Shown here: in pieces, positions 9,395-37,287 of the stretch
How the letters are laid out: every line of letters begins with the position of its first letter
Position numbering within the stretch: the stretch's first letter is position 1
NCBI GenBank assembly: GCA_036630325.1
Contig: CP142728.1
Coordinates: 930,001 to 994,000 of the forward strand
Direction: 5' to 3'
DNA length: 64,000 nucleotides
DNA from: Vairimorpha necatrix
Lineage: Eukaryota
Notes under the pieces: generated by a model
Told to the model about the DNA's origin: nothing
Database searches by the model: none
The model's input: only the letters and a program-made list of their open reading frames with translations
Program-made: the position numbers and the translations under genes

Positions 9395-10494
9395 AAGTTT
9401 TCGAATTAGATTCATTAATAAAACATGGCAAGTTCCTTCTTTGCGCAATTCCCTTTTTAATTACAGACCACATTCCCTCAATTGTTTGGGTGTGGGCGCC
9501 TGTTGTTGGATTTACAAAATTTTGGCTATAATTTACAGTTAAATGTAAATAGTTATAATCCGGACATAGTTCCGAAAACCCTTCATACCCTTGCCAACAA
9601 TCAGTAATAATTGTAGATCCAGGTGCGATTTTTCGTTTTATTAAATCGACAAGAGTAGTTCTTGATCGATTTTCAACAATTTCGAAAAAAATAGAATTGC
9701 TGTCTCCTCGTACAACTCCACCAACGGCCCAAACATGGTATTGAAGGATTCTACCGTTATGGTTTTTACTTTTAACAAGCAATGTCTCATCTATTTCAAC
9801 TACGCAATTTAAACCTCCTATGGTTTTGTTTTGAAGGTAGTTGAAATAGTATAAGAATACAGCGTTATTAAAAAGCGTAAACTAGCGAGATACGGTACTA
9901 CTATCTATATCCAATTCGATAGTAGCCAAAACATTGCTTACACCTTTAACCTATTCACACAGCAAAATTAAAAGATCTTTGATATCTAATCTAGAACTTT
10001 TAAAAATGCTTTATTTGTAAATGTTACCTTTGTTTGAGCATTTTCTCCCATTTCGTCGCAAGTAACAACGATATTTGTCCAAATTATTTCTAATTTTGGT
10101 CATGGTTGTCATGCACTTATTGCACATTGGTACCTTTAATATATTTTTTTCAAGAAGAAATAAAAATAAATCCTCCTTTTTATATATTTATTTTCTAAAA
10201 TTCTTTATGTTCATTTTAGGGGCATAATTTTATTCCTTTTTTTTTATTTTCCCCCCTTTTTTTTATTTTTTTAGGGGGGGGGGTAACATCGCAATTTAAC
10301 CAAATTATCTCTTATACAAAAATAAATATATAATTCATGTTAATTTTATCATATAAAAACAAATATGATACTATAATTCACCTTATGTTACATATTAATT
10401 AGTATATATTTTGTTTTTTATAGGTAATGAATAAACAAAACAAACGAATAAGTTATTTATTGAACTTGTTTCTCTGTTTTATAAGTAAAAATAA

Positions 10495-12574: not shown

Positions 12575-14911
12575 TCTTTTAATAATAAGATTTTTATCAC
12601 TGTTCATTGTGGTGTTTACTATCAACTTTCATGTATTTCCCGAGCTGTTCTATATTCAGCTCGGAAAGGAAAAACTCTTTATGGCTTACTGTAGGATTAT
12701 CAGATAGGCCGTTTTTTATAACTTTTATTGCCTTATCAACAGGCACATACTTTTTCCAATTTTGACGAAGATCGGAGATTATTTTCGTCAAAGCTGATCT
12801 GTTCCTAGAGATATAGTCGCCTACTTCGTTTTCGGCAATAATACTCTTACATTTTTTGAAGAGCTCCCTAGAGTTTCAGCAGCTTGAAAGCAGATTTCAT
12901 CTCTAATAAGAAAAATCCTGCCCTCTCCTTCAATATCTTTTACTAGAGGAATATTCTTTTCCTCTATGCTCTATATTTTGGGCTAGGTCTCTCTAATAAT
13001 GTGTTCCCCCCGGGGAACAATAAGCGACTACAATTTTGTATTTGCAGTCCTTGGGCCTCTTTCCGTTGATTGCTAGGTCTAGCAACTCTTCTCTGGATAG
13101 CTTATCTATTCAGTTCGGCTGTTTCTTCCTTGATGTGTGAGGAGGAGGTACCTTAGGCGAAGAAGTTTTCTTCATCTTGGATTTGCGTTCAGTCATAAAT
13201 TTCGACTTCGCACGAACTTTATAGATAACATATACCAATCATCTTCCAGTATTTTATTACAAGTTTTGAAACTTAACGGGGATTTCAACTGTTTCTTATC
13301 ACAGTTAAAATTCTTTTTTTACACCGCCTGGGAAGGGGGCAAGTTATTGGTTTCGACTGTTTTTGATGTTTTTGAGACATCAGATTTCTTTAAAACCTTT
13401 GGTTTCATATCACAATTTTTGAGAATGACTGTTCAGTCATTCTTCGTCTTTTCTGTTTTAAGAATATTTTTATTCATCAACTTTCTGTTTCCTTTACGGC
13501 ATCGGTTACCTTCCGTAAAAACACATTGAAGGTATTGAATGATGGGATCGTTTTACCAGTAACCTTTATTTGCCTTTATCTTGAGCTTTGGAAAATCCAC
13601 CAAACTTCTCCTTTTCCTTTTTTTGATCACTACTATCAGGTTTTATGGTGATTTGTTCCTCACATTCTTCTTTTGAGCAGCGAGAATTATGTCAATTCTC
13701 TGATCTAATCTTTCATTTGAAGCCTTTAGGGCATCAATTTGTGTGTCAAATTGGTTTCTAACTACAGAAATCTCAATTTCATGCTGTTTCTTCAAGTTTT
13801 TAAGCTTGAATCTCTTTTCACTGAGCTCTTCACAAAAGCATCTAAGTACTCCCGATGAATACTAGTCACTCCATGTAAATTCTTACAGTAGGAAGCAAAG
13901 CTAGCCACCAACCCGCTCTCCCACAGTACCTTTGGTTGGCATTTCTACCTTCTTCTCTCTTTATTCTGTTGAATAAAGTAATAGTTTGTGACCAGAATTT
14001 TATTAATTCTTGGTCTGTGTGAATAGCAGCTTGCAGAAGCTGGTAACTTCACAATCTGGTTTGTAACCTTCCAATACAAGTGAATTAACTCTTTATTATA
14101 CTCTAGAGGTCGATAAGTCGGTCATAATCTCGCAAGTTTCTCCCTCCTTTGTTTTACGTTTGGTTAACCAGCATTTTTCCGGAAATCTAAAACCGATCAG
14201 ATAATCTCGTGTGGAGAAAAGCCTTCTACTTTCTTCTCTTTTTCGATCTATGAGTCTTTGCACATTTTCCTTATCATCAAAATAAATGGTTTCTGTGTCC
14301 AAATGTTGCTTTATATGTATTCTCAATATTTTTTAACCATTCTATAATATTCATATTTCGTAGATCTTCAATAAAGTAAAGGTCCGCCGTGAACTTCAGT
14401 TCTAAGCCTTCTATTTTGGTTTTGAATGTAATGAACTTTCCCTTGAAATTTTCTGTCTGTTTCCTTCCGTCTTTTGACAGATGTACCTTGCTTAGGATTT
14501 CTCTGGTTGAATTCAACTTGACGTATCTTAGGCGGAGATATGTCTTAATGAGGTAAAAGGCATTTTCAGGAGTAAAGCTTTTATTATTTTTAGCGTTTGT
14601 ATTCACCTTCTTGCTCACCATGCCCTTGTGAGCTTTTTTTTGCTATTTATACTTTTACATGTTTGTTTGTAAACAAACAACAAGAAGTTTTAGAAAGACT
14701 ATTCTTGGAATGGAGTATATTGTATCATTACATGGATATGGATTATTTGTTAAGAATAGTAAACAAATAATGTGATGAGCTATGTTTTGATTGATAAGGT
14801 CATCACACTTGCCAACCAGCAGACGAAGGTTGGCAAGACTTAATGCTTTGCACCCAGTTATAATAAACATTGGTCCACCCTCCGCGACGTGGACGCTCTC
14901 TTGTGGCGGGC
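12575..14911 (-). mobile_element. LINE subfamily B copy: 5' ribozyme, 5' UTR and decayed ORF1
   Basis: Inverse homolog of ~59140-61760 (e.g. peptide SDLRQN.KKYVPVDKAIKVIKNGLSDNPTV). That copy continues into an APE domain. Many frameshifts. Confidence 0.8.
14842..14911 (-). ncRNA. HDV-like ribozyme (degenerate P2')
   Basis: Minus strand: P1 GCCCGCC/GGAGGGT (G1.U wobble, one mismatch), P2 AGAGA, P3 GCG-TCCACGT-CGC, P1.1 CC/GG, P4 ACCA...TGGGT, J4/2 GCAAA. Confidence 0.75.
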
Positions 14912-14954
14912 AGAGATTTGCAGCTAGTTAAAAAAAAACATTGGTCCCACCCTC
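14912..14954 (-). ncRNA. 3' half of a further HDV-like ribozyme copy
   Basis: Minus strand GAGGGT-GG-GACCAATGT(n)AACTAGCT-GCAAA-TCTCT, i.e. P1', P1.1, P4, J4/2, P2'. Confidence 0.65.
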
Positions 14955-15058
14955 AAAAAAATAAAATAAAAATAAAAATGTTTATATTTAAAAAGACAGA
15001 ATCAGCAAAAAGAAAAGCCACCAATCCCCCCCCCCAAAAAAAAAAAAAAAACTCCACC
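14955..15058 (-). repeat. LINE 3'-end fragment with T-rich tail (continues at 26250-26282 beyond the LTR insertion)
   Basis: Plus strand AAAAAGACAGAATCAGCAAAA...AAAAGCCACCAA...AACTCCACC matches the 3' ends at 26.3, 33.1 and 36.5 kb. Confidence 0.8.
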
Positions 15059-15122
15059 TGTCGATTATAAATAAGAAAATAAATAAACCCCTATACAATG
15101 ATAAATCCATATTCGAACAGCA
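15059..15122 (+). repeat. 5' LTR (64 bp) of element 2
   Basis: 61/64 identical to 26186-26249; preceded by CCACC. Confidence 0.92.
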
Positions 15123-16216
15123 TGGTGGTGAATTGTGGACAACCCAGTATCAACATAAAAAATCTATCACAAGAACTTTTGAGATACTAAATATTTAGAT
15201 GGTTCAAAAAATTGGACTCATTGGATAAAATTGAATATGTTCTGAGTAAAGCCAGTTACGAGATAATCGAATAGCACTCTAAATTTATGGAACAGACAAG
15301 AGGTTCCTCTCTTACATATGACAAGTGGAAAGAAGCATTATTTAATGAATTTAAGGAAGAAAAGATTGAAGTAGTAGATGTATACCGCCTTTTCCAGAAA
15401 AAAAGATCAGAATGCAAAGGAATTCATCGAAGAAGTCGAAAGTAGTAAAAATGGACTCCAAAGAAACTTTGAAAATTATCATGCTTAGAATAAGAAGAGA
15501 ATTTACGCATACGAAGGCCTACATAACGAGCTGTTGTTTTTTAAATGATATCGACCCTTGGCGAGTTTTAATGATGTAAAAAATTGATAAAAAATTGAAC
15601 GATAAGATAAGAATCGTTTTGGGAAAGAATGAAAAAGGAAATAAGAAAGTTGACGGCAATGGTCCTAAGGAGATTAGAAATGATGGATTAAAGCCTAAAT
15701 ACAATAGCAAAAAACTGCTTCAAATAAATGAAGTCTTAGAAGACTCAGAAGAGATTATTAATAAAGATAATTTGGTATATATCGAAACAAAAAATTTTGG
15801 TTGTTTTTGACGCAGGATCTAACTACTATTTTATTTCTGATGCAGTTAGATTAAAAGCTGGTTTAAGAAGAAGAAAAAACCATGCCAAATTAAAATTCAA
15901 AACTTGTCTTGGGGAAACCTTTGAGGTTAAGTACCATGTCATATGTGACGTTATTTACAAAAATGTGAAATTTCAGTTTAAATTCTTCTTTTTTCCAAAA
16001 GTACCCAGAGAAAAATTTTTGATTGGAAAAGAAGGAATTAAATTAATGATGAATTCTAAAAATCAGTATGAATGTGAAATAAATACAAAAAAGACGCTAT
16101 AGTTGTAGAGAAAGTATATAGCTTCTAAAAGAAATTTGAATCCGGAATGGAAGTTTCGATAAAAAATTTGATAAAAATGAATTATATAGGCCCATCAAAG
16201 TCTACATGGCTGAATA

Positions 16217-17919
16217 CAGTCCATTTCATTTTTATTGACACCTTGTTTCATTTTTATTGACACCTTGTTATATTTTTATTGACACCTTGTTTCATTTTTA
16301 TTGACACCTTGTTTCATTTTTATTGACACCTTGTTTCATTTTTATAGACACCTTGTTTCATTTTTATGGACACTTTGTTTCATTTTTATAGACACCTTGT
16401 TTCATTTTTATAGACACCTTGTTTCATTATTATAGACACCTTGTTCTAAAATTTATTTTACTTTTCTTAAAATTTTTAACCCTTAAAATATGAGAAACCT
16501 AAATGTCAGAGAAGAACTTGAGGAATATCGTACAGAAGAATCATTTGTCGAGATAGAAGATGAAACGCAGTCTTCTGCTGCAAGAAAAACTAGGAAAATG
16601 GTTACCAGGTTGATAATCGAAAGTTTTCTTTCGTTACTTGACACTGGTATGAAACTTATTGATATGGAAGTTGCTTTAAATCTCAGTAAGTCTAGCGTCA
16701 AACGCCTATATAAAAGATATATTACAGGAGAATTTACCAACCTTTCAACTTTTAAAACGGCAGGACAAAAAAAGAGTGAATCTTTAAAAGATATTTCTAT
16801 GGTTTCAAATATTATTGCATCGGAAATAGCCCCGAATCCTTGTCTAGGTCTTTATAATTTATCCGATAAATTGCAAAATGTAAATTGTACGGGACATTAC
16901 TCTAAGTCAACTGTTTGCAGACTTGTTAAAAAATTGGGGTATAGTTCTAAAACCCCGACCTTGATTCCACTAAATAGAAACAGTCCTCAGAACAAGCTGT
17001 TAAGGTCTCAATATGCGAGAGTAATAGATAACATATCAAATGATAATTTAATATTTCTCGACGAAACTGGTTTAAATCTGCACCTTAACAATACTTTTGG
17101 TTATTCTTTAAGAAATACTAAGTGTTGTGTAACGGTCCCGAATTCGAAAGGGACTAATGTTTCTTTAATGTGTGTTATAAGCGTTAATGGATTATATGCG
17201 CATAAAACCAAAGTCGGAAGTTTTAAATCTGCAGATTTTGTCGAATTCATTAACAATAATTTACCTATATGTGAGCAAGAGGAAAACAGAATTTTAATAT
17301 TGGATAACGCATCCATACACAGAACGGCCGAAGTAGCCGCCGCTCTTAGAAACAAAGGATACAGTCTAAAACTTCTCCCTCCATATTCTCCACAACTAAA
17401 CCCCATCGAGGAGTTTTTTAACAGTTTCAAGTCCCGAGTAAAACAGAGACCTAGACCAACAACCACTCCTTTGTTAATTGATTGTATTGAGGACGTGTTG
17501 AACACAGAAGTATTCGTCATGGGTGGTTACTTTTCTCATATGAGAGAATTTATCGAGAAAGCTCTTGTCAATGCGGATTTTTTCTGAATTAATATAATTA
17601 AAAATTTTAATTTAATATTTCTAAGATATTTTCATTGTTTGGCATGTAAATATTGATGTTTATATATATATCGTTACCTCTTCTTTACGATTCAACTATA
17701 TAAATCAATTATGAAAAAATCAAATATATTTTATAACAAGGTGTCTATAAAAATGAAACAAGGTGTCTATAAAAATGAAACAAGGTGTCTATAAAAATGA
17801 AACAAGGTGTCTATAAAAATGAAACAAGGTGTCTATAAAAATGAAACAAGGTGTCTATAAAAATGAAACAAGGTGTCTATAAAAATGAAACAAGGTGTCT
17901 ATAAAAATGAAAAGGACTG
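16217..17919 (+). mobile_element. Tc1/IS630-like DNA transposon with tandem-repeat TIRs
   Basis: TA|CAGTCC...GGACTG|TA. Excision restores RT peptide WLNNIRPVVKP. 22-bp unit repeated ~10x left and ~8x inverted right. Confidence 0.95.
16490..17587 (+). CDS. DD34E transposase (IS630/Tc1 superfamily), intact
   Basis: FLDETG ... ILDNASIH ... PPYSPQLNPIE, with 34 residues between the second D and the E. Confidence 0.93.
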   Translation: MRNLNVREELEEYRTEESFVEIEDETQSSAARKTRKMVTRLIIESFLSLLDTGMKLIDMEVALNLSKSSVKRLYKRYITGEFTNLSTFKTAGQKKSESLKDISMVSNIIASEIAPNPCLGLYNLSDKLQNVNCTGHYSKSTVCRLVKKLGYSSKTPTLIPLNRNSPQNKLLRSQYARVIDNISNDNLIFLDETGLNLHLNNTFGYSLRNTKCCVTVPNSKGTNVSLMCVISVNGLYAHKTKVGSFKSADFVEFINNNLPICEQEENRILILDNASIHRTAEVAAALRNKGYSLKLLPPYSPQLNPIEEFFNSFKSRVKQRPRPTTTPLLIDCIEDVLNTEVFVMGGYFSHMREFIEKALVNADFF

Positions 17920-19684
17920 TAACATTCGGCCAGTAGTAAAACCAGATAATAGTATAAGAATAACACTTAATTTGTTTGCACTAAACAAATTGGTAGAATT
18001 AGACAGATATAGCATTCCAAAAATTGAACATTTAGTATTCAATTTGAGAGACAAAAAATTCTTCACGAAATTGGATTTGAAAGATGGTTTTTTTAACATT
18101 CCGCTAGCGATAAAGGACCAACATAAAACTGCTTTTCGATTTAAGCATTTCTTGTATGATAAGAAAGTAATGCCGATGGGATTTGAGAATGCCCCGGCCA
18201 TATTCAGCGATATATGGATCACGTTCTAAAAGATGAAATAAGAAAGACGTGCATAGGTTACAAGATGACATCTTAATTTTCGGAGAAACACGTGAGGAAC
18301 ACGATAGAAAATTATGCAGAGTGATAAAAATATTAAAGGACAACAATCTCAATATCAACGAAAAGAAAACAGTTTCAAAAGTTAATAAAATAAAATTTTT
18401 GTGAACAATATCGAAAGAAATTATATATCGGCCGAAAATCGAGAATAGAAGCTATAAACGAATTTCAAAAACCAGAGAATAAGAAAAAATACAAAAATTT
18501 TTAGGAATGATAAATTACTCTAGAAAATTTATTCGAAATTGCGGAATGTTATGTGAGCCGCTATACAATCTATTAAAGTTAAAAAGTAGAATACATATGG
18601 ACAGAAAACCACCAAAACAGCTTCCAAAAGTTAAAAGAATTAATAAGTAAACAAATAGAGCTACACCAGCCGAATTACAACCTAGAATTTGTCTTGGAAA
18701 CAGATGCCTTCAACACAGGCCTAGGTGCTATATTGTCCCAGGTCGATGAGGGAGTTAAGGTCCCAATCGCATTTGCTTCAAGAAGTCTAAATCCTCTTTG
18801 AAAAAAATTATTCAATAAGTGAAAAAGAATGCCTAGCTATGCTATGGGGAATTGAACATTATAAATACTTTTCATTTGAGATTGGAATTTACGGCCATTA
18901 CAGATCATCTGACCTTGGAAGCACTTAATAAAGGAGAAGTTAAATCTTTAAGAATCCACAGATGGCTTGGTCGACTTAGTAACTTTATATTTAAAGTGAT
19001 TTATAGAAAAGGGGAAGAAATGTCACACGCGGATGCCCTAAGTAGGAGCTTTGAATAAAAAAAGCGTTAACGAAGTGACTGAAAACGAACTCTTTTTAGA
19101 ACAGGAAAAAATTAAAATAATATCCGAAAAGCATAAAGAAATGCTACATAGAAGTGCAAAAACAATTATTTATAGTTTAGAAAACGAATATAATTGGGTA
19201 GATATAAAAACACTAAAAAAAGGCGATAGATGGCTGTACTACATGTAAGATGTATAATCCGAAGAAAAACAAAAAAATTATATTCGTAACGGCGTATTCT
19301 CCAGGCGGAAAGGTGGGAATAGAAATTATAGGCCCTATAAACAAAAATTATATAATAACAAGATTAGATTATTACACCAGAAAGGGATTTGCCAGGTGTA
19401 TTAACGATAGGTCCGGACAAAAAGTAGCCCTATTTATAAAGGAAATAAATAAAATGATACCGATAAAACGCTTGTTCTGGACAGCTCAAAAGAAAATTTA
19501 AGCAACAGTGTTAAAATGTTGCAAATACAAATAATATTAAGTTACATTACACAACACCATTACATAATCAATCAAACGGGAGAGTGGAAAGGTTTAATAT
19601 AACTCTCCAAGAGATGGCGAATAAAAATTACGAAGACAAGTTTTTGAAAACAAAAGTGCATAAGCCATTTTAATATATAATAAC

Positions 19685-20880
19685 GGTTAAATTGCGATGT
19701 TACCCCCCCCCCACCCCTAAAAAAATAAAAAAAGGGGAAAAATTAAAAAAAAGGGGAAAAAATAAAAAAGGGGAAAAAATAAAAAAGGGGAAAAAATAAA
19801 AAAAGGGGAAAAATAAAAAAAAAAAAAGACCAAACTAAAATTTATTCAATTAATTCAAAATCAAATTCGGGGCTAAATCGTAATTTAAAAACCATATATA
19901 TTGAACTTCAAAAAGCATAACATTCTTTCAAGTAGTGATTCTCTGTAAATTAACTTTAAACGAGCTATATAAAATTTTCGAACGAGACTCATTAAAGAAC
20001 CATGGTTTGTTCCTTCTTTGCGCAATTCCCTTTTAATTACAGACCACATTCCCTCAATTGTTTGGGTGTGGGCGCCTGTTGTTGGATTAACAAAATTTTG
20101 GCTATGATTTACAGTTAAATGTAAATAGTTATAATCCGGACATAGTTCCGAAAACCCTTCATAACCCCGCCAACAATCAGTAATAATTGTAGACCCAGGT
20201 GCGATTTTTCGTTTTATTAAATCGACAAGAGTAGCTCTTGATCGATTTTCAACAATTTCGAAAAAAAAGAATTGCTGTCTCCTCGTACAACTCCACCAAC
20301 AGCCCAAACTTGGTATTGAAGGATTCTACCGTTATGGTTTTTACTTTTAACAAGCAATGTCTCGTCTATTTCAACTACGCAATTTAAACCTCCCATGGTT
20401 TTGTTTTGAAGGTAGTTGAAATATGATAAGAATACAGCGTTATTAAACCGCGTAAACCAGCGAGATGCGGTACTACTATCCATATCCAATTCGATAGTAG
20501 CCGAAACATTGCTTACCCCCTTTACCCATTCACGCAGCAAAATTAAAAGATCTTCGATATCTAATCTAGAACTTTTAAAAATGCTTTCTTTGTAAATGTT
20601 ACCTTTGTTTGAGCATTTTCTCCCATTTCGTCGTAAGTAACAACGATATTTGTCCAAATTATTTCTAATTTTGGTCATGGGTTTCATGCACTTATTGCAC
20701 ATCGGTAACTTTAATATATTTTTTTCAAGAAGAAATATAATTAATTCCTCTTTCTTATATATTAATTTTCTAAAATTCTTGATGTTCATTTTAGAGGTAT
20801 AATTTTATTCCTTTTTTAATTTTTCCCCTTTTTTTTATTTTTTTAGGGGTGGGGGGGGGGGGTAACATCGCAATTTAACC
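19685..20880 (-). mobile_element. Merlin element (transposase 19885-20789, frameshift in an A run)
   Basis: TIR GGTTAAATTGCGATGTTACCCC with TSD ATAATAAC. AAAAAAGGGGAAAAAAT tandem repeats at 19730-19820. Confidence 0.93.
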
Positions 20881-21790
20881 ATAATAACTCTTATCACGTA
20901 GGATTGGGATGCACACCAAACGAAGCAGTAGATAAAAATATGAAAAATTGGTTAAAACGACCCAATTTAAAAATATATTACAATATTCAAAGGCTACAGA
21001 TAAACTGCCAAAAGAAGAAGGGATCAAGTCCATTATGTGCCCAGAGTTTGTAGTTAAGTCCATTATATGCCCAAATGTTTATAAATCGAAAATTTTTAAT
21101 ACAAATACCAAAAACCAAAAATATAATGAATAATTTCTATCATGTTTTGCTGCAAACAAAACTTTTAGACTTCCCAACACATTTTCTACGAACTCATTCT
21201 TAAACATAACCTCTTCCAAAAATCCCGGTAATTGGCTTTTCTTTATCTCACACATTGCTTAATCTTTCTTTTTATTCTGTTCCATAATGACTCGACTGTT
21301 TGTGTTAACTCCAGTCTCAGGTTGCACAAAATAAGATGGTTGATCGGACCGAAATTCACCTTTTTTTGATGTCTTCAAATTTTTATTTTTTCACCCCCAA
21401 AAATGAAATTCCAAAAGTTGAAGAAGAAAACAAAAAAAGAATAAAAGTTTTAAATATTTAATTTTTCATCATCTTTTACGTTTAACAACTTATTACTGGA
21501 TGAGTATCATAGTTTTTTTTTTATTAACATGTACCTCTCTAAATACCTATTAATTAATTTCCTCGTTCTACATCTGTATGGTATATACTGTGTTAAACCA
21601 GACCATGTTCCTTCGATAGTATTAGTATGTATTACTGTCTCGAGATCTTTAAAATATATAGAGTGGTTTACAGTGTGGTGACTATAATCTTCATTTTGAA
21701 TGCCCGTATATCACTTCTAACAGTCAGAATATAATTTGCTACCTTCTTTTACACTATTTTTAATGTGAAATTTTAACGTACTTTTAGTAC

Positions 21791-26185: not shown

Positions 26186-26249
26186 TGTTGATTATAAATA
26201 ATAAAATAAATAAACCCCTATTCAATGATAAATCCATATTCGAACAGCA
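26186..26249 (+). repeat. 3' LTR (64 bp) of element 2
   Basis: Preceded by a polypurine tract and followed by the CCACC TSD. Confidence 0.92.
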
Positions 26250-26282
26250 CCACCAATAGGAAAAAAATCAATAATTGTGTTT

Positions 26283-26388
26283 AAAAAAAATAAAAAAAAT
26301 GAAAATTTTTATTGTAAAAGGACAGAATCAGCAAAACGAAGAAAAGCCACCAAGCCACCAAAAATTCCACCAACCTGAAAAACATCAA
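26283..26388 (-). repeat. Short LINE 3'-end fragment with T-rich tail
   Basis: ~105-bp copy of the terminal part of the 3' UTR (GACAGAATCAGCAAAACGAAGAAAAGCCACCAAGCCACC). Confidence 0.8.
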
Positions 26389-29300
26389 TAAAAAAATAAA
26401 AATAATAATAAAAATAAAAATGTATATTGTAAAAAAAGACATCCAGAATCAAAACAAACGTTCCTAAATCATCATAATAAGTTCCATATAATAGGAGGCC
26501 AAATCCATTCAAAGAAAAATACATTCAAATAAAGGAAATAAATAGATGGGATACAGAATGATATGAAAAATCAGCAAAAACGAAGAAAAGCCCCCCAAAA
26601 CTCCACTGCTAAGGAAAAATCATCAATAATCGCGCTTTCGCGCCAGCACACCTTTACGGCCTCGCTTGTAGTAGAAAAACTTGTTCTATGGGACAACAAA
26701 TTCTAGTCAACGATGACTAGATCCACCAGAGGTGGTGTGTGTGAAAACGACATCGTCTGGCTCAATACACCATTTAAGAACACAACTCAGTTCAGCGGAA
26801 CAAATAAAGCATCAGTATCATGCTTGAACCCTCCCAGGTCAATTATATAAATATATAAATTTTGTCGTTAACAAATTAACTAAATTTTTCTTCCATTTCT
26901 GGGTATTTACTTTTTTAAGAAATCTTCATTAATTATTCATGTGATTGTTGAGCTCCTTGAGTTTGTTATTGAATAGTATCGCTCTGGAGACAACCATCTT
27001 GTCTAGGAACTCAATGATCAAGCAGAGTTCTTTTATATGTTCCGGATTATTTTTCAACCCAATCTTATTACCAAGAAGTTGCTTTGTTTTTTCTTGGTTA
27101 TTTGTTTGTGAACATGTTAGTAGAGGCAGTTTATTTCGCCGCGATGATCTTATTTCGTTTAATGACGAGCACTCAAACAGGAAGTGTTCTAAATTTTCTT
27201 GTGGTCCATCACACAAAAAGCACATCATTCTATAACTCACTGGAATTCTCTTTGCATTGGCTATTGAGGAGGACCACCTTACTAGATTACATCTTAATCT
27301 AGTGTATGTTCTTATCTTTCTATTGTTGACTTTGTTTATGACATATTTCAACTGTGAGCTTCTTATGTCATAAATATCTGCTATTGATGCAGCTACAGAA
27401 GTATTTATCGTTCTCCTTCTTCTTAGTACATCAGTTGTTTTTGTAGAAACAGATACATTGTTCTTGTTTCATAGTCGTTACCGACGAATCTTTTTAACCA
27501 CCTTTGCGTTCTTGTAGACCAGGTGGTTTTTCTTTCTCTCGGATTGATTGAAATTATATCTGAGATTATGGTTTTATTGTGTTTCCACTTGTTGTATGCT
27601 CTAAAGCTACTTAAAGCTGCTTGTATATGAATTCGTTCTATACTGAACTCATCCAATAATCTATCTAGGGGAACTAATACCTGTTGGAATATCATCCCCA
27701 ATGATTTCCTTAAGATCCTATTGATCTTACCTGCTCTTGTACTAGACATTCCCCAAAGTTCATTGCCATACATTAGTGTGGGAACTAGTACACATTTTGT
27801 CAAGATCGCCTTAAATAATATGTTGATACCATTATTTAATAACTTTGGCATCAGGGCGTCTAGGGGTTTCGAGCCACGCATTGCCGCGTCTCTGACCAAA
27901 TGTTCTTCAAGTGTGTTTCCTTTATTAAAACACATAGATATCTATATTCTGTGACTTCTTCAATCACGCCAAAGTCTGTATTGATGGAATATAAACTTCT
28001 AATTTCTTGAATATTAGAGTTAACATTCCATTCTAATACTCCACTCTTCTTGCAGTTAATTTTCATTCTGTTGTCAACTGCACATTTCGAAATTCTTTTG
28101 ATCTTATTTTCTAGATCATCAATATTGTTTCCAAAGACAACGATATCATCGGCGAACATCAGTCCTGAAACTCTTGTATTTGATCTTGGGATCAAGACAC
28201 CATCTATGCCGTCAAAAATATCATTGATAAATATATTGAACAGCATTATAGAACAAGGGCATCCTTGTCTCACTCCTTTTCTGTAGCCATAGCCACTTGA
28301 ATTTTCTCCGGCGATTTTTATTGGCATGGTGGTGTTTTTATAGATATTCTTTATTGTATTTATCAAATACCTGGGGATATCTAGATTTTCTAGCTTACTA
28401 AATAATAAGTCATGACTTACATCATCATAAGCTTTCTCAAAGTCTATGAAACACATCACTGTGTTCACGCCTCTGAATTCTCTTCTTCTTACTACTTCAA
28501 GTAGGAGAGTAAATTGGTTCATACATTCTTCACCTTCTCTAAATCCTGCTTGGTATTTAGAGATGATGTTATTTTCTTTAACAAATTGGGTCAATCTGTC
28601 GTTAATTATCTTGAGATAGATCTTGCTAATTGTGTTTATTTTGGAGTTTCCCGTATAATTATTCAGATCTGTCTCTTCTCCTTTTTTGTGGAGACAAATC
28701 ATGTTTGCCATACTCCAGTATTTTGGTAGGGTTTCTCCACTAATGTATTTATTAAATTCATATAGCATGAATTTAAAGAATTTTTCTTCTACTGCTCTAG
28801 TCAGTAAGTGTTTGTATAGCTCGGTTGGAATCTCATCAGGACCGGCAGCTTTGTTGTTTCCGCATTTCTTCAGTGCGGATAGAAATTCTTCATCTGTTAT
28901 CTCTGGGGGAAGATCAAAAAAATCTACTTTATCATAGGCATTGACATCTATATCATTCTCTGACGATAATTCGGCGTAAAATTTATTCGCTATTTCTAGC
29001 TTCTTTGCTCGGCAAGTCTGAAGAAGCTTATTGTGGTCAATTAGAGTTACTTGATCCAAACGAATGGAAACACTTCTATTTTTCAGCCATTGCCAGAATT
29101 CTCGGGATCTATTACTTTTAAAGAGCTTTATTCCTTTTAAAACCCAAAGTTTCGATCTATCTTTGCGAATAAATTTCTTCGTATCCTCTACTCTCTTTTT
29201 GATATCTACGAGCCGGGCTAAATTGATTTCATTGTGATTTTTCATAACCGCTTTTGCTGCTAAACGCTTTTCTTTGAAGACTTTTAAGTATCTCCATCTC

Positions 29301-32279
29301 ATTGTAAGTCCAGTGTGGACCCTTTTCTTTTTGTAGATCTTTAAAGATGTACAAGCTTTTTTAATAATCTCGGGAAGATTATTCATACTTAATTGTTGAT
29401 TACTCAACTTCATTTTAAGCCTTTTAATCACTTTCGGATTTTCCAGCATCTTTTTATCATAGACTAGTTGATCAGAGATCTTATCAACAGTTAGTGAGAT
29501 ATATTTTTTGAGCACTAAGTGATCACTTAGTACCCAAGACTTTGATATAATGATCTTCTCATTATCGTATTCTTTCAGCCTAAAGATGGTATCAATTTTT
29601 CTCTTAGATCTTTTCCCATCTTTGAGAATCCTTGTACCATCTTTGCTGTTATACTTCATCGTAACTGGTAAACCAATTACTACTAGTTTTTTCTTGAGAG
29701 AAGAACTCTGCATATTCATATCTCCCATTACTATAATTTCACTATAATAGTTTCTGAATTTCTCTTTTTCTAGAAGAGACAAAAGTCTGGCAAGCACCTC
29801 CCTTTTGAGATCCCTGTCTTGTGGTATGTAGACATTTAAGATTAAGTATTTAATCCACTTGCCTTCTGATCTAAACTCAACCACTGTTTGCAGAATGTTT
29901 GAGTCAGTTCCCTTTTTGCTACATCTAATAGCTCCAGTGTTTCTCACCAGAGTTATTAACCCTGGTTTATTTTTTCCACTGCTTGGTGTTTCAACAGCAG
30001 TGTATTTTTCTAGTCTAAGGGATCTATTAGATTGTCTCCAAGTTTCCTGTAGACACATAATTTCTGGTTTCTCCTTCTTAAGAAGAAACTCAAGTTCTTC
30101 TCTCTTGTGGGAGAGATGGTTGATGTTGAGACTTAAGAGTTTTATCTTCTCTCTAATCTCTTTTATTGTTTTATTAGTTTTTTCTAATCCTTTTCTGTTA
30201 TCATTTAAAACTTTATAGCCTTCAGCTTTAATAATCTTAATCAATAAATTTTTATGTGTTTTTTCAACTACTATCTTTGTTAATGACGCATTTCTACGTC
30301 TAAACTTTCGTATTGTAAAAATGGCAGAATCTAATTCAGACTCTCTATTTACAAGACATTTTCTTAGGTCTTTACAATCGACGGGAATTCTTTGCATATT
30401 AACTATACAGAAATTTTCTTGTAGTTTTCTAGTCCATAGATTTTTCCGCGTATAAAATGAAGTTATGCACTTCATCCTTCTACGGCTTCTGAAAGCTCCA
30501 AAAGGTTTATTTAATCCTGTAGGATTAGTGATTTTTTTATTTAATAAAGATAATAAATATTGAATTTTGAAAGAGAAATATCTCTTGTAAAACTTAGACT
30601 TTAAAAGAATATCAACTTTATTCATTTTTAGAGTCCTTCATTTTCCGGGCAGGTTCACCCATCATACTATGTAGGTAGATAAAATTTTTATATGCTAAAT
30701 TCTCACTACCTAAATTCTTCTTTATGTACTTACAAGCTTCCGTAAGTGGTATAAAATTTTTATTAATTCTAGAAACCCATAGAAGCTCCTCCAGAATTAA
30801 ATCCTTCTTTGATTTCAGAAAGTCCACCATAAATGTCTCGTCATTACAGACATATGCCTCTGGGATTTCGTCCAAGAGATTTTTTACTGCTCTTTCGCAG
30901 GTACCTTCTCTGAGCATCAAGAGAATAGACTCTTCATCTCTAAACTGCTTTAAGAGTGGGATGTCTTTTCTCTCAATAGTGAGTAGAGCAGCCCAAGCGT
31001 CTCTAGCTTGGTGCTCCTTCCATACTCCCAGACCTCCTACCAATACAAATTTAAATTTGCATTTGGATATAGGACATCCACCTCTAATAATTTTAATGAG
31101 AGCTTCTTTAGAAAGCCCTTTTGCCCTGTTCTTCTGAGGTTGAACTGGGTTTATTTTCTTGCCAGATTTCTCTTGGGATTCCTTCTTAGCCATTTTGGGG
31201 CTTGAATTTTTCTTTTCTTTGATGGAATTTTTTTTCTCGCCTAGTGACATTGTTAGGCTTTCCTTTTTGTGAAATTTAATACACTTCCCTAGGTTTTCTA
31301 CTTTAATAGAAGTAAATCTATTAAGTTCTTTTAATTTAGTATGTTTAATACTAGAGTTTTTATTAAGACCAAATTGCATCTTTGGCTTAAAGGTATGTCT
31401 GACAGACTTCCATCCATCTTTATTGATTTGGTATAGCTTAACTCCATTCTTTGGAGCTTTGCTTCTACCAGATATTATTGCTGAGATAATTTTAAGATGA
31501 TTATCTACTGCTTTCTTATTTATGTCAGCTACATCGAGCTTAACATTATTGGTATTTACAACTTCATTAGTTATATTTTTACTTTCTTTAGAGACTTCAA
31601 TTGTTTCTAAACACATTCTTTTGCCATATTCTGACAATCTATCTTCTTCTTCTACTTTAGAGGCAGATTCGAGATTTTTGACATTAATTAAAAAATCTTC
31701 ATTTATGATTTCTAAATTAGAAACATCATTCTTTCCAGTAGCTAACTGAAGGGTTTCGCTACTGGTGACATTTGGAACATTGGAGTTAATATCCTTTTGT
31801 TCTACATGTTCTTTTGAGTGATTCTCTATCATCATCTCAATTTTGTTCTTTGATGCTTCAGTAATTTGATCACTGTCATCCATCAAATTATTTTTAATCA
31901 AATTTTTTAATTTCATTTTTTGTTTTTCTAGCTTATCGTGGGAGAGCTCCAGATATGTCTGCTGAATCGTTACTAATTCAGTAGTACTAGATATAAACTT
32001 TTTAAGATCATTAAGATCTTTTCTACTTTTATTTTTTGACATGTCCAAAAAATCATTTTTACAAATTCTTTCTGAAAGAATTTTAATTTTTTTAAGAAAA
32101 TATTTCATCTCTCCATCTTTTTTGAAAGTAACGCTAGAGTTACCATCATCAGCATAAACATGCTTAATATGTTCTGTTAAATACATTTCTGTATCTAACT
32201 TGTTGTTTTGACCATCATAGTGGTCACTTGTGGCACTACTGTGCTCGCTCCTGCTTTTTTCCTCTTTACCCTTCATCAT
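26389..32279 (-). mobile_element. APE-RT non-LTR retrotransposon (LINE subfamily A, copy 1), near full length
   Basis: ORF1, then ORF2 with APE (LQETW, MGDMN, SDH), RT (GVRQGCP, FADD) and C-terminal CFLC...EHFLFEC. Structured 3' UTR. Confidence 0.93.
26929..30625 (-). pseudogene. LINE ORF2 (APE endonuclease-RT-Zn knuckle), split by a frameshift and a stop
   Basis: ORFs 27860-30625, 27423-27935 and 26929-27351 are collinear with the A2 copy. Confidence 0.9.
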
Positions 32280-33071
32280 GTTTAGACTTAAGAGTTTTAT
32301 GTTCTCTTTGGTCTTTTTATTTACTTTACTAGATTTCTCTAGTTCTTTTCTATTATCATTTAAAACTTTAAAGCCTTTAGCTTTAACTGTCTTAATCAAT
32401 AAATTTGCGTATAGTTTTTCAACTATTATTTTTGTAAAAAACGTGTCTCTTCGTCTATACTTTCTTGCTGTAATGATGGAATTCTCCAAAAGAGAGTTCT
32501 TCTTACATAAGTCTTTGAGGAGATCTTTCACTCCATAAGGAATTCTTTGTATCTTGACAATACAATATTGTTCTTGTACTTTCTTCCACCACATATTCTT
32601 TCTAATAGAAAAATATTTGAGACTATTCAGTCTCCTTGGTGTTTTAAAAGTATTTTTTAATTTATTATAACCAATTGGATTATGAGTTTTTTTATTTAAA
32701 GATTTAAAAATATCACTTTTGTTATAGGAAAATAATTTCCTATAAAAACAGAACTTTAACAAGGATACTTTATTCATTATAAAGTCCTTAGATTCTCGGG
32801 CAGGCTCACCCATCATATTTTCTAAATAAATGAAATATCCATGGTTTGGCTTTTCTTTATTTAATTCTTTAGTTATGTACCTACATGCTTTAACAAGTGG
32901 TACAAAGTTTTTATGCGTTCGAGAGAATCTTTGTAGTTCTCCTAGAACAGTTGTTTTTGTTAAAGACAAAAATTCGATGAAGAAATTAACTTCCTCACAG
33001 ATATTAGAACCCACGAACTTTTCTTTAATTTTGCCTAGTACCTTAGGGCACACGTTTTCTCTAATCATCAA
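30618..33071 (-). CDS. Chimeric ORF: paralogous ORF1-end/ORF2-start fragment fused in frame to LINE ORF1 (probable native start ~32279)
   Basis: The first ~265 aa repeat the end of this ORF (FIYL..MMGEPAR) and the start of ORF2 (MNKV..., IKLLSLN). The rest is Lys-rich ORF1-like sequence. Confidence 0.7.
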   Translation of the reverse strand: MMIRENVCPKVLGKIKEKFVGSNICEEVNFFIEFLSLTKTTVLGELQRFSRTHKNFVPLVKACRYITKELNKEKPNHGYFIYLENMMGEPARESKDFIMNKVSLLKFCFYRKLFSYNKSDIFKSLNKKTHNPIGYNKLKNTFKTPRRLNSLKYFSIRKNMWWKKVQEQYCIVKIQRIPYGVKDLLKDLCKKNSLLENSIITARKYRRRDTFFTKIIVEKLYANLLIKTVKAKGFKVLNDNRKELEKSSKVNKKTKENIKLLSLNMMKGKEEKSRSEHSSATSDHYDGQNNKLDTEMYLTEHIKHVYADDGNSSVTFKKDGEMKYFLKKIKILSERICKNDFLDMSKNKSRKDLNDLKKFISSTTELVTIQQTYLELSHDKLEKQKMKLKNLIKNNLMDDSDQITEASKNKIEMMIENHSKEHVEQKDINSNVPNVTSSETLQLATGKNDVSNLEIINEDFLINVKNLESASKVEEEDRLSEYGKRMCLETIEVSKESKNITNEVVNTNNVKLDVADINKKAVDNHLKIISAIISGRSKAPKNGVKLYQINKDGWKSVRHTFKPKMQFGLNKNSSIKHTKLKELNRFTSIKVENLGKCIKFHKKESLTMSLGEKKNSIKEKKNSSPKMAKKESQEKSGKKINPVQPQKNRAKGLSKEALIKIIRGGCPISKCKFKFVLVGGLGVWKEHQARDAWAALLTIERKDIPLLKQFRDEESILLMLREGTCERAVKNLLDEIPEAYVCNDETFMVDFLKSKKDLILEELLWVSRINKNFIPLTEACKYIKKNLGSENLAYKNFIYLHSMMGEPARKMKDSKNE

Positions 33072-33113
33072 AAGTACTACTTCCGAATCTTTAAATTGTT
33101 TTATAAGTGGTAT

Positions 33114-36100
33114 AAAAAATAAAATTGTTTATTGTAAAAAAGACAGAATCAGCAAAACGAAGAAAAGCCTCCAAGCCACCAAAAACTCCACTAATAAAGA
33201 AAAAATCATCAATAATTGCGTTTACACGCCAGCATACCTTAACGGCCTCGCTTGTAGGAGAAAAGTTTGTTCCCATAGGACACATCCTTAGTCATAATAT
33301 GACTAGAGACCCACTTTCATGGGTCTAATGAAAAACGAAAACGCCTGGCTCAATGCACCATTTAAGAACACGACTCAGTTCAGCGGAACAATACAGCATC
33401 AGTATCATGCCCGACCTCTCCCAGGTCAAATATAATTAAATATAAGTCTTTTTGTTAATAAATCAACGTCTCTTTCTTCTATTTCTAGATCTTCATTTTT
33501 TTAATTATTCATATTAATTACCTTGTTTCGTTATCTCCTTAAGTTTCTTTTCAAATATAATTCTTCTAGAGACAACCATTCTATCTAAGAACTCTATAGT
33601 CCAACAAAGTTCTTTTATCTTATCTGGGTTGTTTCTTAATCCGATTTTATTACCAAGAAGTAATTTGGTTTTTTCTTGGTTATTTGTTTTTGAACAAGTC
33701 AGTAGAGGCAGTTTATTTTCAAAAGATGATCTAATGTCAGTTAAACAGACGCACTCCAGCAGAAAGTGTTCTAAATTTTCTTGTGGTCCATCACACAAAA
33801 AGCATTTATTTCTATAACTCATAGATATTCTTTTTGAATTGGTTATTGCTGAGGACCACTTTACTAGATTACATCTCAATCTAGTATATGTTCTAATTTT
33901 TCTATTGTTTATTTTGTTCATGACATATTTTATTTGTGAATTTCTTATGTCATATTGATTTGCTATTGATGCAGCTAAGGAAGTATTTAGAGTTCTCGAC
34001 TTCTTAGTACATCAATTATTTTTGTAGTGATAAATCTACTATCACTTGATTCATATTCGTTGCCAACAAATCGTTTTAACCATCTTTGTGTTCTTGAACA
34101 CCAGGTAGTTTTTCTTTCTTTCGGATAAATTGAGATTATATTCGATATGATTGTCTTATTGTGTTTCCACTTGTTGTATGCTCTAAATCTACTTAAAGCT
34201 GCTTGTATATGAATTCGTTCGATACTGAACTCGTCCATTACTCTATCTAGTGGAACTAATACTCTTTTGAATATCATTCTGATAGATTTTCTTAAGATCC
34301 TGTTAATCTTACCTGCTCTTGTACTTGACATTCCCCACAGTTCACTACCATACATTAGTGTGGGTACTAGTACACATTTGATTAAGATCGCCTTGAAGTA
34401 AAGGTTGATGCTATTATTCATCAACTTGGGCATCAAGGCGTCTAAGGCTTTCTTGCCACGCATTGTTGCGTCTTTGACCAAATGTTCTTCTAGCGTGTTT
34501 CTTTTAATTAAGACACCTAGATATCTGTATTCAGTGACTTCCTCAATCACACCAAAGTCTGTACTGAGAGAATACAAACTTCGGAATTCTTGTATGTTAG
34601 AATGAGCAGCCCATTCTAATACTCCGCTTTTTGAGCAGTTAATCTTCATTCTGTTATTAACTGCCCAATTAGAAATTCTATTGATCTTATTATTAAGATC
34701 ATAAATGTTGTTTCCGAAGACAACAATATCATCTGCGAACATCAGTCCCGGAGCTCTCGTATTTGACCTTGGGATCAAAACTCCTTCTATGCCATTAAAA
34801 ATATCATTGATGAATATATTGAATAGCATTGGAGAACAAGGGCACCCTTGTCTCACTCCTTTTCTGTAGCTATAACCACTTGACGTGTCACCACCAATTT
34901 TCACACGCATAGTGGTATATTTATAAATATCCTTTATTGTATTGATTAAATACAATGGGATATTAAGTTTTGTAAGCTTCTCAAATAATAAGTCATGACT
35001 TACATTATCATAAGCTTTTTCAAAGTCAATGAAACACATTATTGTGTTCAGGCCTCTGAATTCTCTTCTTCTCACTATTTCTAGTAGAGATGTAATCTGA
35101 TTCATACACTCTTCACCTGCTCGGAATCCTGCTTGGTATCTAGAGAGTATATCTTGTTCTTCGACAAATTGAGTTAACCTGTCATTTATTATCTTGAGAT
35201 AGATCTTACTAATTGTGTTAATTAAGGAGATTCCCCTATAATTATTCAGATCTGTCTCATCTCCTTTTTTGTGAAGGCAAATCATGTTTGCCATGCTCCA
35301 ATATTCTGGAGGACTATTTCCACAAATATATTTATTAAATTCATGTAGCACGAATTTAAAGAATTTATCTTTTACTGCTCTAGTCAGTAAGTGTTTGTAT
35401 AGCTCGGTTGGAATCTCATCAGGACCGGCAGCTTTGTTATTTCCACATTTCTTCAGTGCGGATAGAAATTCTTCATCTGTTATCTCTGGGGGAAGATCAA
35501 CAAGATCTACTTTATCATAGACATTGACATCTATATCATTCTCTGACGCCAAATCAGCGTAAAATTTATTCGCTATTTCTAGCTTCTTTGCTCGACAAGT
35601 CTGAAGTATCTTATTGTGGTCAATTAGAGCCACTTGATCCAAACGAATGGAAACACTTCTATTTTTCAGCCATTGCCAGAATTCTCGGGATCTGTTACTT
35701 TTAAAGAGCTTTATTCCTCTTAAAGCCCAAAGTTTCGATCTATCTTTGCGAATCAACTTTTTAGTTTCGTCTACTCTCTTTTTGAGATATTCGAATCTAA
35801 TTGAGTTGATTTCGTTGTAATTTTTCATAACAGCTCTTGCTGCTAGACGTTCTTCTTTGAAGACTTTTAAATATCTCCATCTCATTGTAAGTCCAGTATG
35901 GACTTTTTTCTTTCTGTAAATCTTTAACGATGTACAAACTTTTTGAATAATCTCAGGAAGATTATTCATGTTTAATTGTTGATTACACAACTTCTTTTTA
36001 AGCTTTTTAATCACTTTTGGATTTTCCAGCATTTTCTTATCATAAACTAGTTGATCTGAGATCTTATCAACGGCAAGTTTAATTTTTCTTTTGAGCACTA

Positions 36101-36491
36101 AGTGATCACTTAATACCCAAGACTTGGATATAATGATCTTCTCATTATCATTACTTTTTAGTCGAAAGATGGTATCAGTTTTCCTCTTAGATCTTTTACC
36201 ATCTTTGAGGATCCTTGTACCATCGTTGCTGTTATATTTTATTGTAACTGGCAAACCAACTACATTTAGTTTTTTCTTGAGACTAGAACTCTGCATATTC
36301 ATATCTCCCATCACTATGATCTCACTATAGTTATTTCTGAAATTCTCTTTTTCTAAAAGAGAAAGTAATCTGGCCAAGGTCTCCCTCTTGAGATCCTTGT
36401 CTTGTGGTATGTAGACATTTAAGACTAAATACTTAATCCATTTGCCTGCGGAACTAAACTCAACTACGGTTTGCAGGATGTTTGAGTCTGT
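33114..36491 (-). mobile_element. LINE subfamily A copy 2, 5'-truncated within the APE domain
   Basis: ORF 33987-36593 matches A1 ORF2 from DSNILQTVVEF onward (YRGISL, QGCPCSP, FADD). C-terminus 33514-33921 is frameshifted. 3' UTR module at 33130-33428. Confidence 0.93.
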
Positions 36492-36995
36492 AAAAAAAAA
36501 AAAATAAAAATGTTTATTGTAAAAAGACAGAATCAGCAAAACGAAGAAAAGCCACCAAGCCACCAAAAACTCCACCAACCAGAAAATCATCAATAATTGC
36601 GTTTACACGCCAGCATACCTTAACGGCCTCGCTTGTAGGAGAAAAGTTTGTTCCCATAGGATACATCCTTAGTCATAATATGACTAGAGACCCACTTTCA
36701 TGGGTCTGATGAAAAACGAAAACGCCTGGTTCAATACATCATTTAAGAACACGACTCAGTTCAGCGGAACAATACAGCTTCAGTATCATGCCCAACCTCT
36801 CCCAGGTTTAAAATATGAAGAATTACTCGAAAGTTAACGGTGTTCTTCTCACCAGCAATGGGTCTCCCACCCCTAGAGTATAGCTGACCCTACTTACCAA
36901 CCAGCAGCCGAAGGTTGGTATGACTTAGAGATCTGCACCTAGTTAAAAAACATCGGTCCCACTCTCCGCGACGTGGACGCTTTCTTGTGGAGGGT
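36492..36995 (-). mobile_element. Non-autonomous short internally deleted element: ribozyme 5' end joined to LINE 3' module
   Basis: 36895-36995 matches the 5' end at 14810-14911. 36505-36808 is near-identical to the A2 3' UTR. No ORF between them. Confidence 0.85.
36927..36995 (-). ncRNA. HDV/CPEB3-like self-cleaving ribozyme
   Basis: Minus strand ACCCTCC-ACA-AGAAA-GCG-TCCACGT-CGC-GGAGAGT-GG-GACCGATGTTTTTTAACTAGGT-GCAGA-TCTCT. P1, P2, P3, P1.1, P4 and the J4/2 C are all present, with one mismatch each in P1 and P2. Confidence 0.8.
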
Positions 36996-37062
36996 AGTAC
37001 CAAATAAAATAAAAAAAAATACGCTCTCTTGTGAAGGCCAACACCTACTATACATACAAAAA

Positions 37063-37287
37063 AAGCAGTAACCTCAAAATGTCGGCATACACCTTCATTC
37101 TTACAGTTCTGCTTAAAAGAGTAGTATTCTCCTAAATGTATCTTTGAGCTACGCTTCAGGCTTAAGAGGCTTTCAGCCTTAATCGAAACGACGTAGCTAA
37201 GCAACATAACTTAATAGTTAATCGCACTACCAGTGGTCATCACTTAGAGTTCCTCTCGTACTATCAAAGTTCACTCAAAAATACTTA

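Follow-up and report, generated by a model that had tools for sequence, protein, structure and literature searches.

A head-to-tail LINE array with a probable 5′ HDV-like ribozyme behind the LSU rRNA gene of Vairimorpha necatrix

Vairimorpha necatrix is a microsporidian parasite of insects. A 64,000-nt stretch of its genome (assembly GCA_036630325.1, contig CP142728.1, positions 930,001 to 994,000 of the forward strand; hereafter the window, with positions counted from its first letter) was analysed. The results showed that the large subunit (LSU) rRNA gene in the window is followed, within 0–5 nt of its predicted 3′ end, by a head-to-tail array of pieces of a long interspersed nuclear element (LINE) family, which runs from 37039 down to approximately 12572 on the minus strand. 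The explanation of the whole that we favour, with moderate confidence, is an L1-like LINE with a probable hepatitis delta virus (HDV)-like ribozyme at its 5′ end and a T-rich tail, whose copies were stacked from the LSU 3′ end onwards by insertion into the family's own tails; LINE A and LINE B would then be related L1-like subfamilies of V. necatrix with apurinic/apyrimidinic endonuclease (APE) and reverse transcriptase (RT) domains. Direct observation covers the anatomy of the array and its protein domains, the common 5′ ends, the junctions of tail and head, and the agreement of the 5′ motif with the fold. Judged from sequence, the family is probably a ribozyme-headed LINE, and the modelled fold suggests that the motif may be catalytic.

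The window contains one rRNA unit, detected with Rfam on the minus strand (minus-strand features are given from high to low positions). The small subunit (SSU) rRNA gene is of microsporidian type (40827 to 39581; RF02542, 1059.1 bits) and is followed by the LSU rRNA gene (39466 to 37040; LSU_rRNA_eukarya, 1344.6 bits), with the 5.8S-like 5′ part of the LSU lying upstream, between 39466 and 39581. The LSU 3′ end was predicted from the archaeal LSU model, the local alignment of which reaches the last model position at 37040; the end at about 37063 proposed in a first-pass annotation of the window lies 23 nt within the gene and was not borne out. The LSU match is a single contiguous 2.4-kb block without a kb-sized insertion, in agreement with the earlier statement that the canonical insertion site of R2 retrotransposons is empty here. 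The eukaryotic LSU covariance model over-extends to 36865, approximately 175 nt past the likely LSU end, and the over-extension (36865–37039) covers three pieces described below (R0, a T-rich tract and R1), implying that routine rRNA annotation would mask the ribozyme-like motif within the rRNA feature. A 105-aa open reading frame (ORF) across LSU, R0 and R1 (P0054), used as a probe, gave no candidate other locus. Among 22 sequencing runs compared by sampled words of the query, two contained 0.54–0.58 of the words and 18 contained 0.20–0.23, a share close to that of the LSU, from which we draw no evidence.

The array begins with R0 (37039 to 37021), the first 19 nt of the ribozyme-like motif with the 5′ strands of P1, P2 and P3, which was recognized from the sequence, a 13-mer match and alignment A1 and starts at the base directly after the predicted LSU end. 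R0 is succeeded by a T-rich tract like the LINE-A 3′ tails (37020 to 37002; 8–9 nt exact matches to the tail of LINE A2 only), which on its sequence may be a tail-only LINE stub, and by GGTACT (37001 to 36996). A short element of approximately 505 nt without ORFs follows (36995 to 36491), which consists of R1, a hairpin, a spacer and a LINE-A 3′ untranslated region (3′-UTR) with tail. R1 (36995 to 36927) is a complete 69-nt HDV/CPEB3-like motif by descriptor match, pair counts and a partial match to the CPEB3 model (36966–36990). The hairpin just 3′ of R1 (36920 to 36895), seen in folds, has a counterpart at 14837 to 14808, and the 3′-UTR with its T-rich tail (approximately 36830 to 36491) is 94.9% identical over 313 nt to the 3′-UTR of LINE A2. 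LINE A2 itself (36490 to approximately 33113; RVT_1, 7.2e-39, and tblastn; ORFs of 868 and 135 aa) comprises a 5′-truncated ORF2, which begins at approximately residue 247 of the V. ceranae relative P0002, a 3′-UTR and a T-rich tail.

Behind LINE A2 lies an internal LINE-A fragment (approximately 33112 to 32278; blastn and tblastn of P0005), in which the ORF1 C-terminus and approximately 168 ORF2 codons are fused in frame to the ORF1 body of LINE A1. The duplication was visible by blastn (30123–30309 corresponds to 32278–32464, and 30506–30666 to 32661–32817). The resulting ORF of 816–817 aa (P0005; 30618–33071) is a chimera of an ORF1 C-terminus/ORF2 N-terminus fragment and an ORF1 body, and no Pfam domain was found in it. 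LINE A1 (approximately 32277 to approximately 26392; RVT_1, 8.4e-32; Exo_endo_phos, 1.9e-5) has an ORF1 body, an ORF2 in three frames (921, 170 and 140 aa), a 3′-UTR and a T-rich tail, and bears no ribozyme at its 5′ end. Two 3′ stubs come next. Stub 1 (approximately 26391 to 26283; repeat family D10) is the last ~100 nt of the LINE-A 3′-UTR with tail (91% identity over 78 nt to the A2 3′-UTR end). Stub 2 is cut by an insertion resembling a long terminal repeat (LTR) element: its upstream part (approximately 26282 to 26250) matches A2 3′-UTR positions 33224 to 33208 over 17 nt at 94% identity, and its downstream part with the T-rich tail (15058 to 14955; A2 3′-UTR matches 33191 to 33181 and 33157 to 33115) resumes the 3′-UTR where the upstream part ends. 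Between the tail of stub 2 and the next complete motif stands a 3′ half of the ribozyme-like motif, which extends from the 3′ strand of P1 to that of P2 (14954 to 14912; alignment A1 and blastn-short).

The second complete motif, 70 nt long and here termed the R2 motif, occupies the 5′ end of LINE B (14911 to 14842; pair counts, and CPEB3 alignment at 14863–14922 with 14.8 bits). It leads into the LINE B 5′-UTR and a frameshifted ORF1 with its ATG at 14621 (14841 to 12572), which is 87–92% identical to a plus-strand copy at 59135–61756; LINE B is cut off at the ORF1/ORF2 boundary, at approximately 12572, and its ORF2 is lost. The plus-strand copy is part of a second LINE B-like member (59135–63315; blastn, tblastn of P0002 and P0005, and sequence), which is 5′-truncated, lacks a ribozyme and lies upstream of the rDNA on the strand opposite to the rRNA. 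All tblastn matches of LINE proteins between 26962 and 36488 were on the minus strand, and tblastn together with reading of the sequence placed every LINE piece past the LSU end on the rRNA strand, head to tail, as the first-pass annotation had described; the order of pieces that it had listed, from R0 to the ribozyme and ORF1 of LINE B, was also recovered by sequence, blastn and tblastn. Its description of 14842–37063 as one LINE array holds for the same-strand LINE pieces but not for the approximately 11.2 kb at 15059–26249, which are a non-LINE insertion. Without this block, the sequence from the LSU end to LINE B is unbroken LINE-family sequence.

The LINE family is of the APE type, as previously assigned: a Pfam search found in ORF2 an AP-endonuclease domain (Exo_endo_phos) at 24.9 bits, for a cut-off of 24.5, and behind it RVT_1 at 111–134 bits. 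A protein named 'reverse transcriptase [Vairimorpha necatrix]' matches the window's LINE ORF2 at 100% identity. The nearest protein clusters, at 52–53% identity, carry Vairimorpha ceranae names and have intact members of 1232–1237 aa; with the V. ceranae ORF2 relative P0002 as query, no DNA locus encoding it was found in viral_contigs or genome_contigs. A unit of 350–500 nt stands directly after the ORF2 stop in both LINE A1 and LINE A2, and the stubs retain only its last ~100 nt, indicating that this unit is the 3′-UTR. LINE A1 and LINE A2 are 84.4% identical over 3371 nt by blastn and their 5′ break points differ; the pieces are therefore separate, mostly 5′-truncated insertions and not one duplicated block. 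LINE A2, stub 1 and stub 2 end in the same 3′-UTR and tail, that is, they are 5′-truncated copies with a common 3′ end; no 3′ end of LINE B is present in the window. The coding copies are all truncated or frameshifted, with one frameshift in LINE A2, two in LINE A1 and no ORF2 in LINE B. Since R0 is split, R1 and the R2 motif are mismatched and every ORF is truncated or frameshifted, the array at this locus is a fossil record of the LINE family, not a working source.

The motif is made up of P1 (7), J1/2 (3), P2 (5), P3 (3), L3 (7, with CC), P3′, P1′ and a GG that forms P1.1 (segment lengths in brackets), followed in R1 and the R2 motif by a weak two-part P4, G-C-A-R-A and P2′. The order of segments (P1, P2, P3, L3, P3′, P1′, P1.1, P4, J4/2, P2′) is that of the HDV-like nested double pseudoknot. 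When the proposed structure was placed on alignment A1, 88.5% of 52 cells paired, compared with 31–41% when the partners were slid by 1–3 columns. P3 (3 bp, closing the 7-nt L3) and P1.1 (CC of L3 with the GG after P1′) were paired in 100% of cells. P1 has six of seven pairs in R1 and six of seven in the R2 motif, and P2 has four of five and two of five, respectively; the majority consensus pairs at 7/7 positions in P1, the first being G-U, and at 5/5 in P2. A consensus with perfect P1 and P2 suggests that the mismatches are decay of individual copies. The predicted catalytic C, at 36935 in R1 and 14850 in the R2 motif, stands in J4/2 just ahead of the P2 3′ strand, and N-purine-A comes after it (CAGA, 36935 to 36932; CAAA, 14850 to 14847), an assignment by position only, and cleavage of R1 is predicted between 36996 and 36995.

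R0, R1 and the R2 motif become homologous exactly at the predicted +1 position, where three element 5′ ends lie, and the sequence upstream of +1 is unrelated in the three cases (the end of the LSU, GGTACT, or the last part of another motif). A common start at +1 behind unrelated sequence looks like the product of full-length cDNAs of self-cleaved RNA. The motif region is also the only conserved part of the 5′ ends when the R1-led short element is compared with LINE B (84–85% over approximately 100 nt). A core 24-mer occurs twice in the window, a count reached in 0 of 100 shuffles, and a core 13-mer occurs three times, for a shuffle mean of 0.09. The CPEB3 model (RF00622) aligned the R2 motif in the same register. 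Full-length LINE A and LINE B would, in this model, begin with a self-cleaving ribozyme of 69–70 nt of the HDV/CPEB3 type, followed by a conserved hairpin, and the ribozyme would cut the element RNA free of any upstream transcript, so fixing the RNA 5′ end at +1. The ribozyme head proposed in the first-pass annotation is upheld in so far as the full-length 5′ end carries a motif that fits the fold; it is weakened by the low CPEB3 score (14.8 bits against 35), by the mismatches and by the loss of P2 from the R2 motif.

Several results weigh against this reading of the motif, and most of them also speak for an alternative, which we consider unlikely: that the motif is a conserved LINE 5′-UTR element, such as an internal promoter or a protein-binding site, with a chance likeness to HDV, and that the common 5′ end is a transcription start. 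The motif is below every Rfam threshold: CPEB3 fell short of its gathering score, with E values of 0.17–0.8 reached only in small searches of 191–901 nt, and no ribozyme family was found in a 27.5-kb Rfam search at E up to 10. Compensatory changes in the ribozyme core were found at 0 of 23 pairs between the two full copies, the only two compared. The P2 3′ strand of the R2 motif is not complementary, so that P2 is absent there, and in both copies this strand can instead join the basal helix of the downstream hairpin. That hairpin is conserved at least as well as the motif, with 95% of cells paired and one A-U to G-C double change. In favour of the ribozyme, a strict descriptor matched only R1 in 128 kb (both strands), and the R2 motif as well when two P2 mismatches were allowed; against it stand the writing of this descriptor after the sequence had been seen and the 6 of 200 dinucleotide-shuffled windows that also gave a match. 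Nested folds were no better than those of shuffles (z of 0.15 and 0.54), although nested folding is uninformative for a pseudoknot. On the other side, six helices, the CC/GG pairing of L3 and the C-purine-A junction occur in canonical order and spacing in two diverged copies, and the consensus repairs every mismatch. The two readings are moreover not exclusive, as promoter and ribozyme coexist in one 77-nt element of L1Tc, according to the part of that report available to us (PMC3383444).

Some candidates were rejected in the course of this work. A first descriptor, with 74 matches of which many overlapped, was too loose for AT-rich DNA, and the stricter one took its place. An apparent covariation in the basal helix of the hairpin (CUCUA/UAGGG in R1, CAUUA/UGAUG in the R2 motif) was dropped, the 3′ strands being two columns apart in alignment A2. 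A match of the ribozyme core in metagenome_contigs (L001) lay in a GC-rich, bacterial-looking contig without an Rfam match and was taken as chance, and the core had no match in viral_contigs.

In all five LINE-A 3′ ends read, the sense strand is rich in T (36491–36511, 33113–33125, approximately 26392–26420, 26283–26300 and 14955–14975, all minus strand), just behind an AATAAA-like word, and none of the five has the poly(A) or simple-repeat 3′ tail of LINEs. The next family piece begins at once at five of six tail ends, and 6 nt later after the T-rich tract that ends at 37002. This pattern, in which each LINE piece finishes in a T-rich tail and its successor starts there, fits tail-directed insertion. 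New copies would arise by target-primed reverse transcription starting where the DNA is T-rich, mostly within tails of resident copies, and each insertion would land head to tail in the direction of the resident copy. The founding insertion would have been placed at the LSU 3′ end or a few nt from it, and the array would then have grown to approximately 12572. Tail-directed priming would be the simplest account of the common direction. Two points count against it: the evidence comes from a single array, and R0 is broken at a place that is not rich in T. Against the favoured reading as a whole, a T-rich tail on the sense strand is unusual for a LINE, and we know of no precedent.

The array sits where read-through by RNA polymerase I (Pol I) could feed it, and the LINE family may make some use of Pol I transcripts. 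A stronger proposal, to which we assign a low probability, is that the family is specialised for the LSU 3′ flank, where Pol I read-through and excision by the ribozyme would give it rDNA-level expression without breakage of the gene. This proposal agrees with the start of R0 immediately behind the predicted LSU end, with the co-direction of array and rRNA, and with partial accounts in the literature, in which ribozyme-headed LINEs depend on co-transcription (PMC3774820, PMC3185411) and LINE repeats of the microsporidia Hamiltosporidium tvaerminnensis and Gurleya vavrai lie mainly between tail-to-tail rRNA operons (PMC12449221). However, it rests on one rDNA locus, and orientation follows from tail-directed insertion: the eight or nine pieces that share a direction cannot be counted as separate trials, because the first insertion alone was free in its direction. 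The array thus amounts to one or two independent events, and the shared orientation is not independent evidence of selection for Pol I read-through. In addition, neither the rRNA strand nor the rDNA flank holds the family exclusively: the member at 59135–63315 lies upstream of the rDNA and is oppositely oriented. R0 is disrupted, the LSU and R1 are separated by a T-rich tract, and all coding copies are dead.

An extended version, in which the LSU 3′ flank is a dedicated LINE niche, the first ribozyme also sets the pre-rRNA 3′ end and occasional uncleaved co-transcripts, reverse-transcribed from the LINE tail, spread whole rDNA units, appears improbable to us; if it were true, such copying would account for rDNA units being single and dispersed in Vairimorpha and Nosema. 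Still less probable is that R0 is a host ribozyme in the 3′ external transcribed spacer of the rDNA unit, trimming the pre-rRNA at the LSU 3′ end, and that LINEs captured it or inserted beside it. The position of R0 directly behind the LSU would suit such a role, and R0 together with the 3′ half at 14954 to 14912 would form a solo ribozyme just upstream of the R2 motif, which plain LINE insertion does not explain. R0 is nevertheless interrupted after nt 19 in a rDNA unit that is otherwise intact, its possible other half at 14954 is short by approximately 10 nt, and the two halves pair in only five of seven P1 positions, as read by eye from the alignment. Finally, the idea that rDNA unit and LINE are one retro-copy, made when a Pol I read-through transcript that had escaped cleavage was reverse-transcribed from the LINE tail (5′ transduction), would explain dispersed single rDNA units, which the available part of one report places on 10 of 12 V. 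necatrix chromosomes (PMC10759460), and the fusion of the LSU end to a LINE 5′ end without a spacer, but it is very improbable, as the window holds no retro-copy boundary upstream of the SSU and a copy from the Pol I start site would be promoterless.

The block that splits stub 2 (15059–26249, plus strand; sequence, repeat D17 and Pfam) is an 11.2-kb insertion that looks like one of LTR type. It is bounded by 64-nt TG...CA direct repeats (15059–15122 and 26186–26249, 95% alike), which would be very short LTRs, and by a target duplication of 5 bp (GGTGG). Read on the plus strand, the first repeat leads into a primer-site-like start (TGGTGG), and a purine-rich tract lies ahead of the second. Neither gag nor pol was recognized in 15059–26249, and the block is filled with DNA transposons. 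A Tc1/mariner transposase gene (DDE_3, 2.6e-27; 16490–17587, plus strand) lies within 16180–17954, flanked by inverted arrays of approximately 10 copies of a 22-nt tandem repeat. A Merlin/IS1595-like transposon occurs in three copies that are 72–93% alike, one within the block (19885–20894) and two beyond it (7242–8112 and 9395–10315), with a G/C homopolymer and T-rich sequence near the ends; a further N-terminal fragment lies at 25466–25876. An integrase gene (22445–24169, minus strand), in which rve and Integrase_H2C2 scored just below the Pfam cut-offs and which has a Cys-rich C-terminus, is framed by 159-nt inverted repeats (21787–21945 and 24384–24542, 97% alike); this arrangement suggests that the whole (21787–24542) is a Ginger-like cut-and-paste element. 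On the other side of the rRNA unit, a repeat of approximately 150 nt lies 120 nt upstream of the SSU 5′ end (40948–41099) and recurs inverted at 54548–54701 (79%), a copy that in turn matches 6360–6473 directly (83%).

LINEs headed by a ribozyme have been reported in animals and in trypanosomes, and there are good descriptions of short deletion derivatives of them (SIDE, NARTc). A full-text literature search, with subscription journals outside its scope, found no report of HDV-like or self-cleaving ribozymes in microsporidia or Nosema, and none of the papers that combine microsporidia, ribozyme and retrotransposon treats ribozyme-headed LINEs there, as judged by title and abstract. The earlier belief that the arrangement lacks a microsporidian precedent can thus be kept for the ribozyme but not for the co-location of rRNA operons and LINEs, which was published for several microsporidia in 2025, with no mechanism given in the part available to us (PMC12449221). 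The same partial source proposes that rRNA genes and transposable elements (TEs) co-evolve and calls the V. necatrix rRNA operons 'more randomly distributed'; 18–20 single rDNA loci per haplotype are given for this species in an excerpt of another report (PMC10759460). If a ribozyme does stand at the LSU/LINE boundary, it would offer a mechanism for the co-location that can be tested, and it would bear on how rDNA units became dispersed in the clade.

Among known systems, R2 elements insert at a conserved 28S site and have one ORF and a restriction-like endonuclease. They resemble the V. necatrix family as LINEs with a 5′ HDV-like ribozyme that frees them from an rRNA co-transcript and in being co-directional with the rRNA; their ribozymes tolerate mismatches in P1 and P2 and a variable P4, as far as the accessible text goes (PMC3774820). 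Unlike R2 elements, which sit inside the 28S gene, the V. necatrix LINE has an APE domain and two ORFs and stands after the LSU end, leaving the gene intact. The contiguous LSU block, the APE domain and the two ORFs place it outside the R2 clade.

Copies of L1Tc, a LINE of Trypanosoma cruzi, end in poly(A). L1Tc/NARTc resembles the V. necatrix family in that an APE-type LINE carries an HDV-like ribozyme (L1TcRz/Pr77) in its first ~77 nt and shares this 5′ end with a short non-autonomous partner, like which the short element at 36995 to 36491 is built (PMC3185411, PMC3383444, both available in part). In contrast, L1Tc copies are described there as dispersed and their 77 nt act as a promoter, whereas the V. 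necatrix copies have T-rich tails and form a head-to-tail stack. SIDE elements, which are R2 and R2/R1 derivatives with internal deletions, reportedly retain both the 5′ ribozyme and the 3′-UTR while the ORF is lost (PMC3414825). The 505-nt element has the same make-up, although it is known from one copy only. The mammalian CPEB3 ribozyme (RF00622) is the best-matching Rfam model, its P1, P3 and L3 segments aligning in register; it differs in being intronic and not part of a LINE, and the match scored 14.8 bits for a gathering score of 35.

Microsporidian LINEs of H. tvaerminnensis and G. vavrai lie mainly at the LSU ends of rRNA operons, as here, and the part of that report available to us describes no ribozyme, orientation rule or mechanism (PMC12449221). 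For the stacking, the nearest parallel is in Drosophila, where insertion-site preference is, in the available portion of the source, the main source of head-to-tail TE tandems (PMC5932611). The V. necatrix array is like these tandem TE dimers in repeated insertion at a preferred site, and it differs from them in that the preferred site is apparently the family's own T-rich tail and in having six stacked pieces rather than two.

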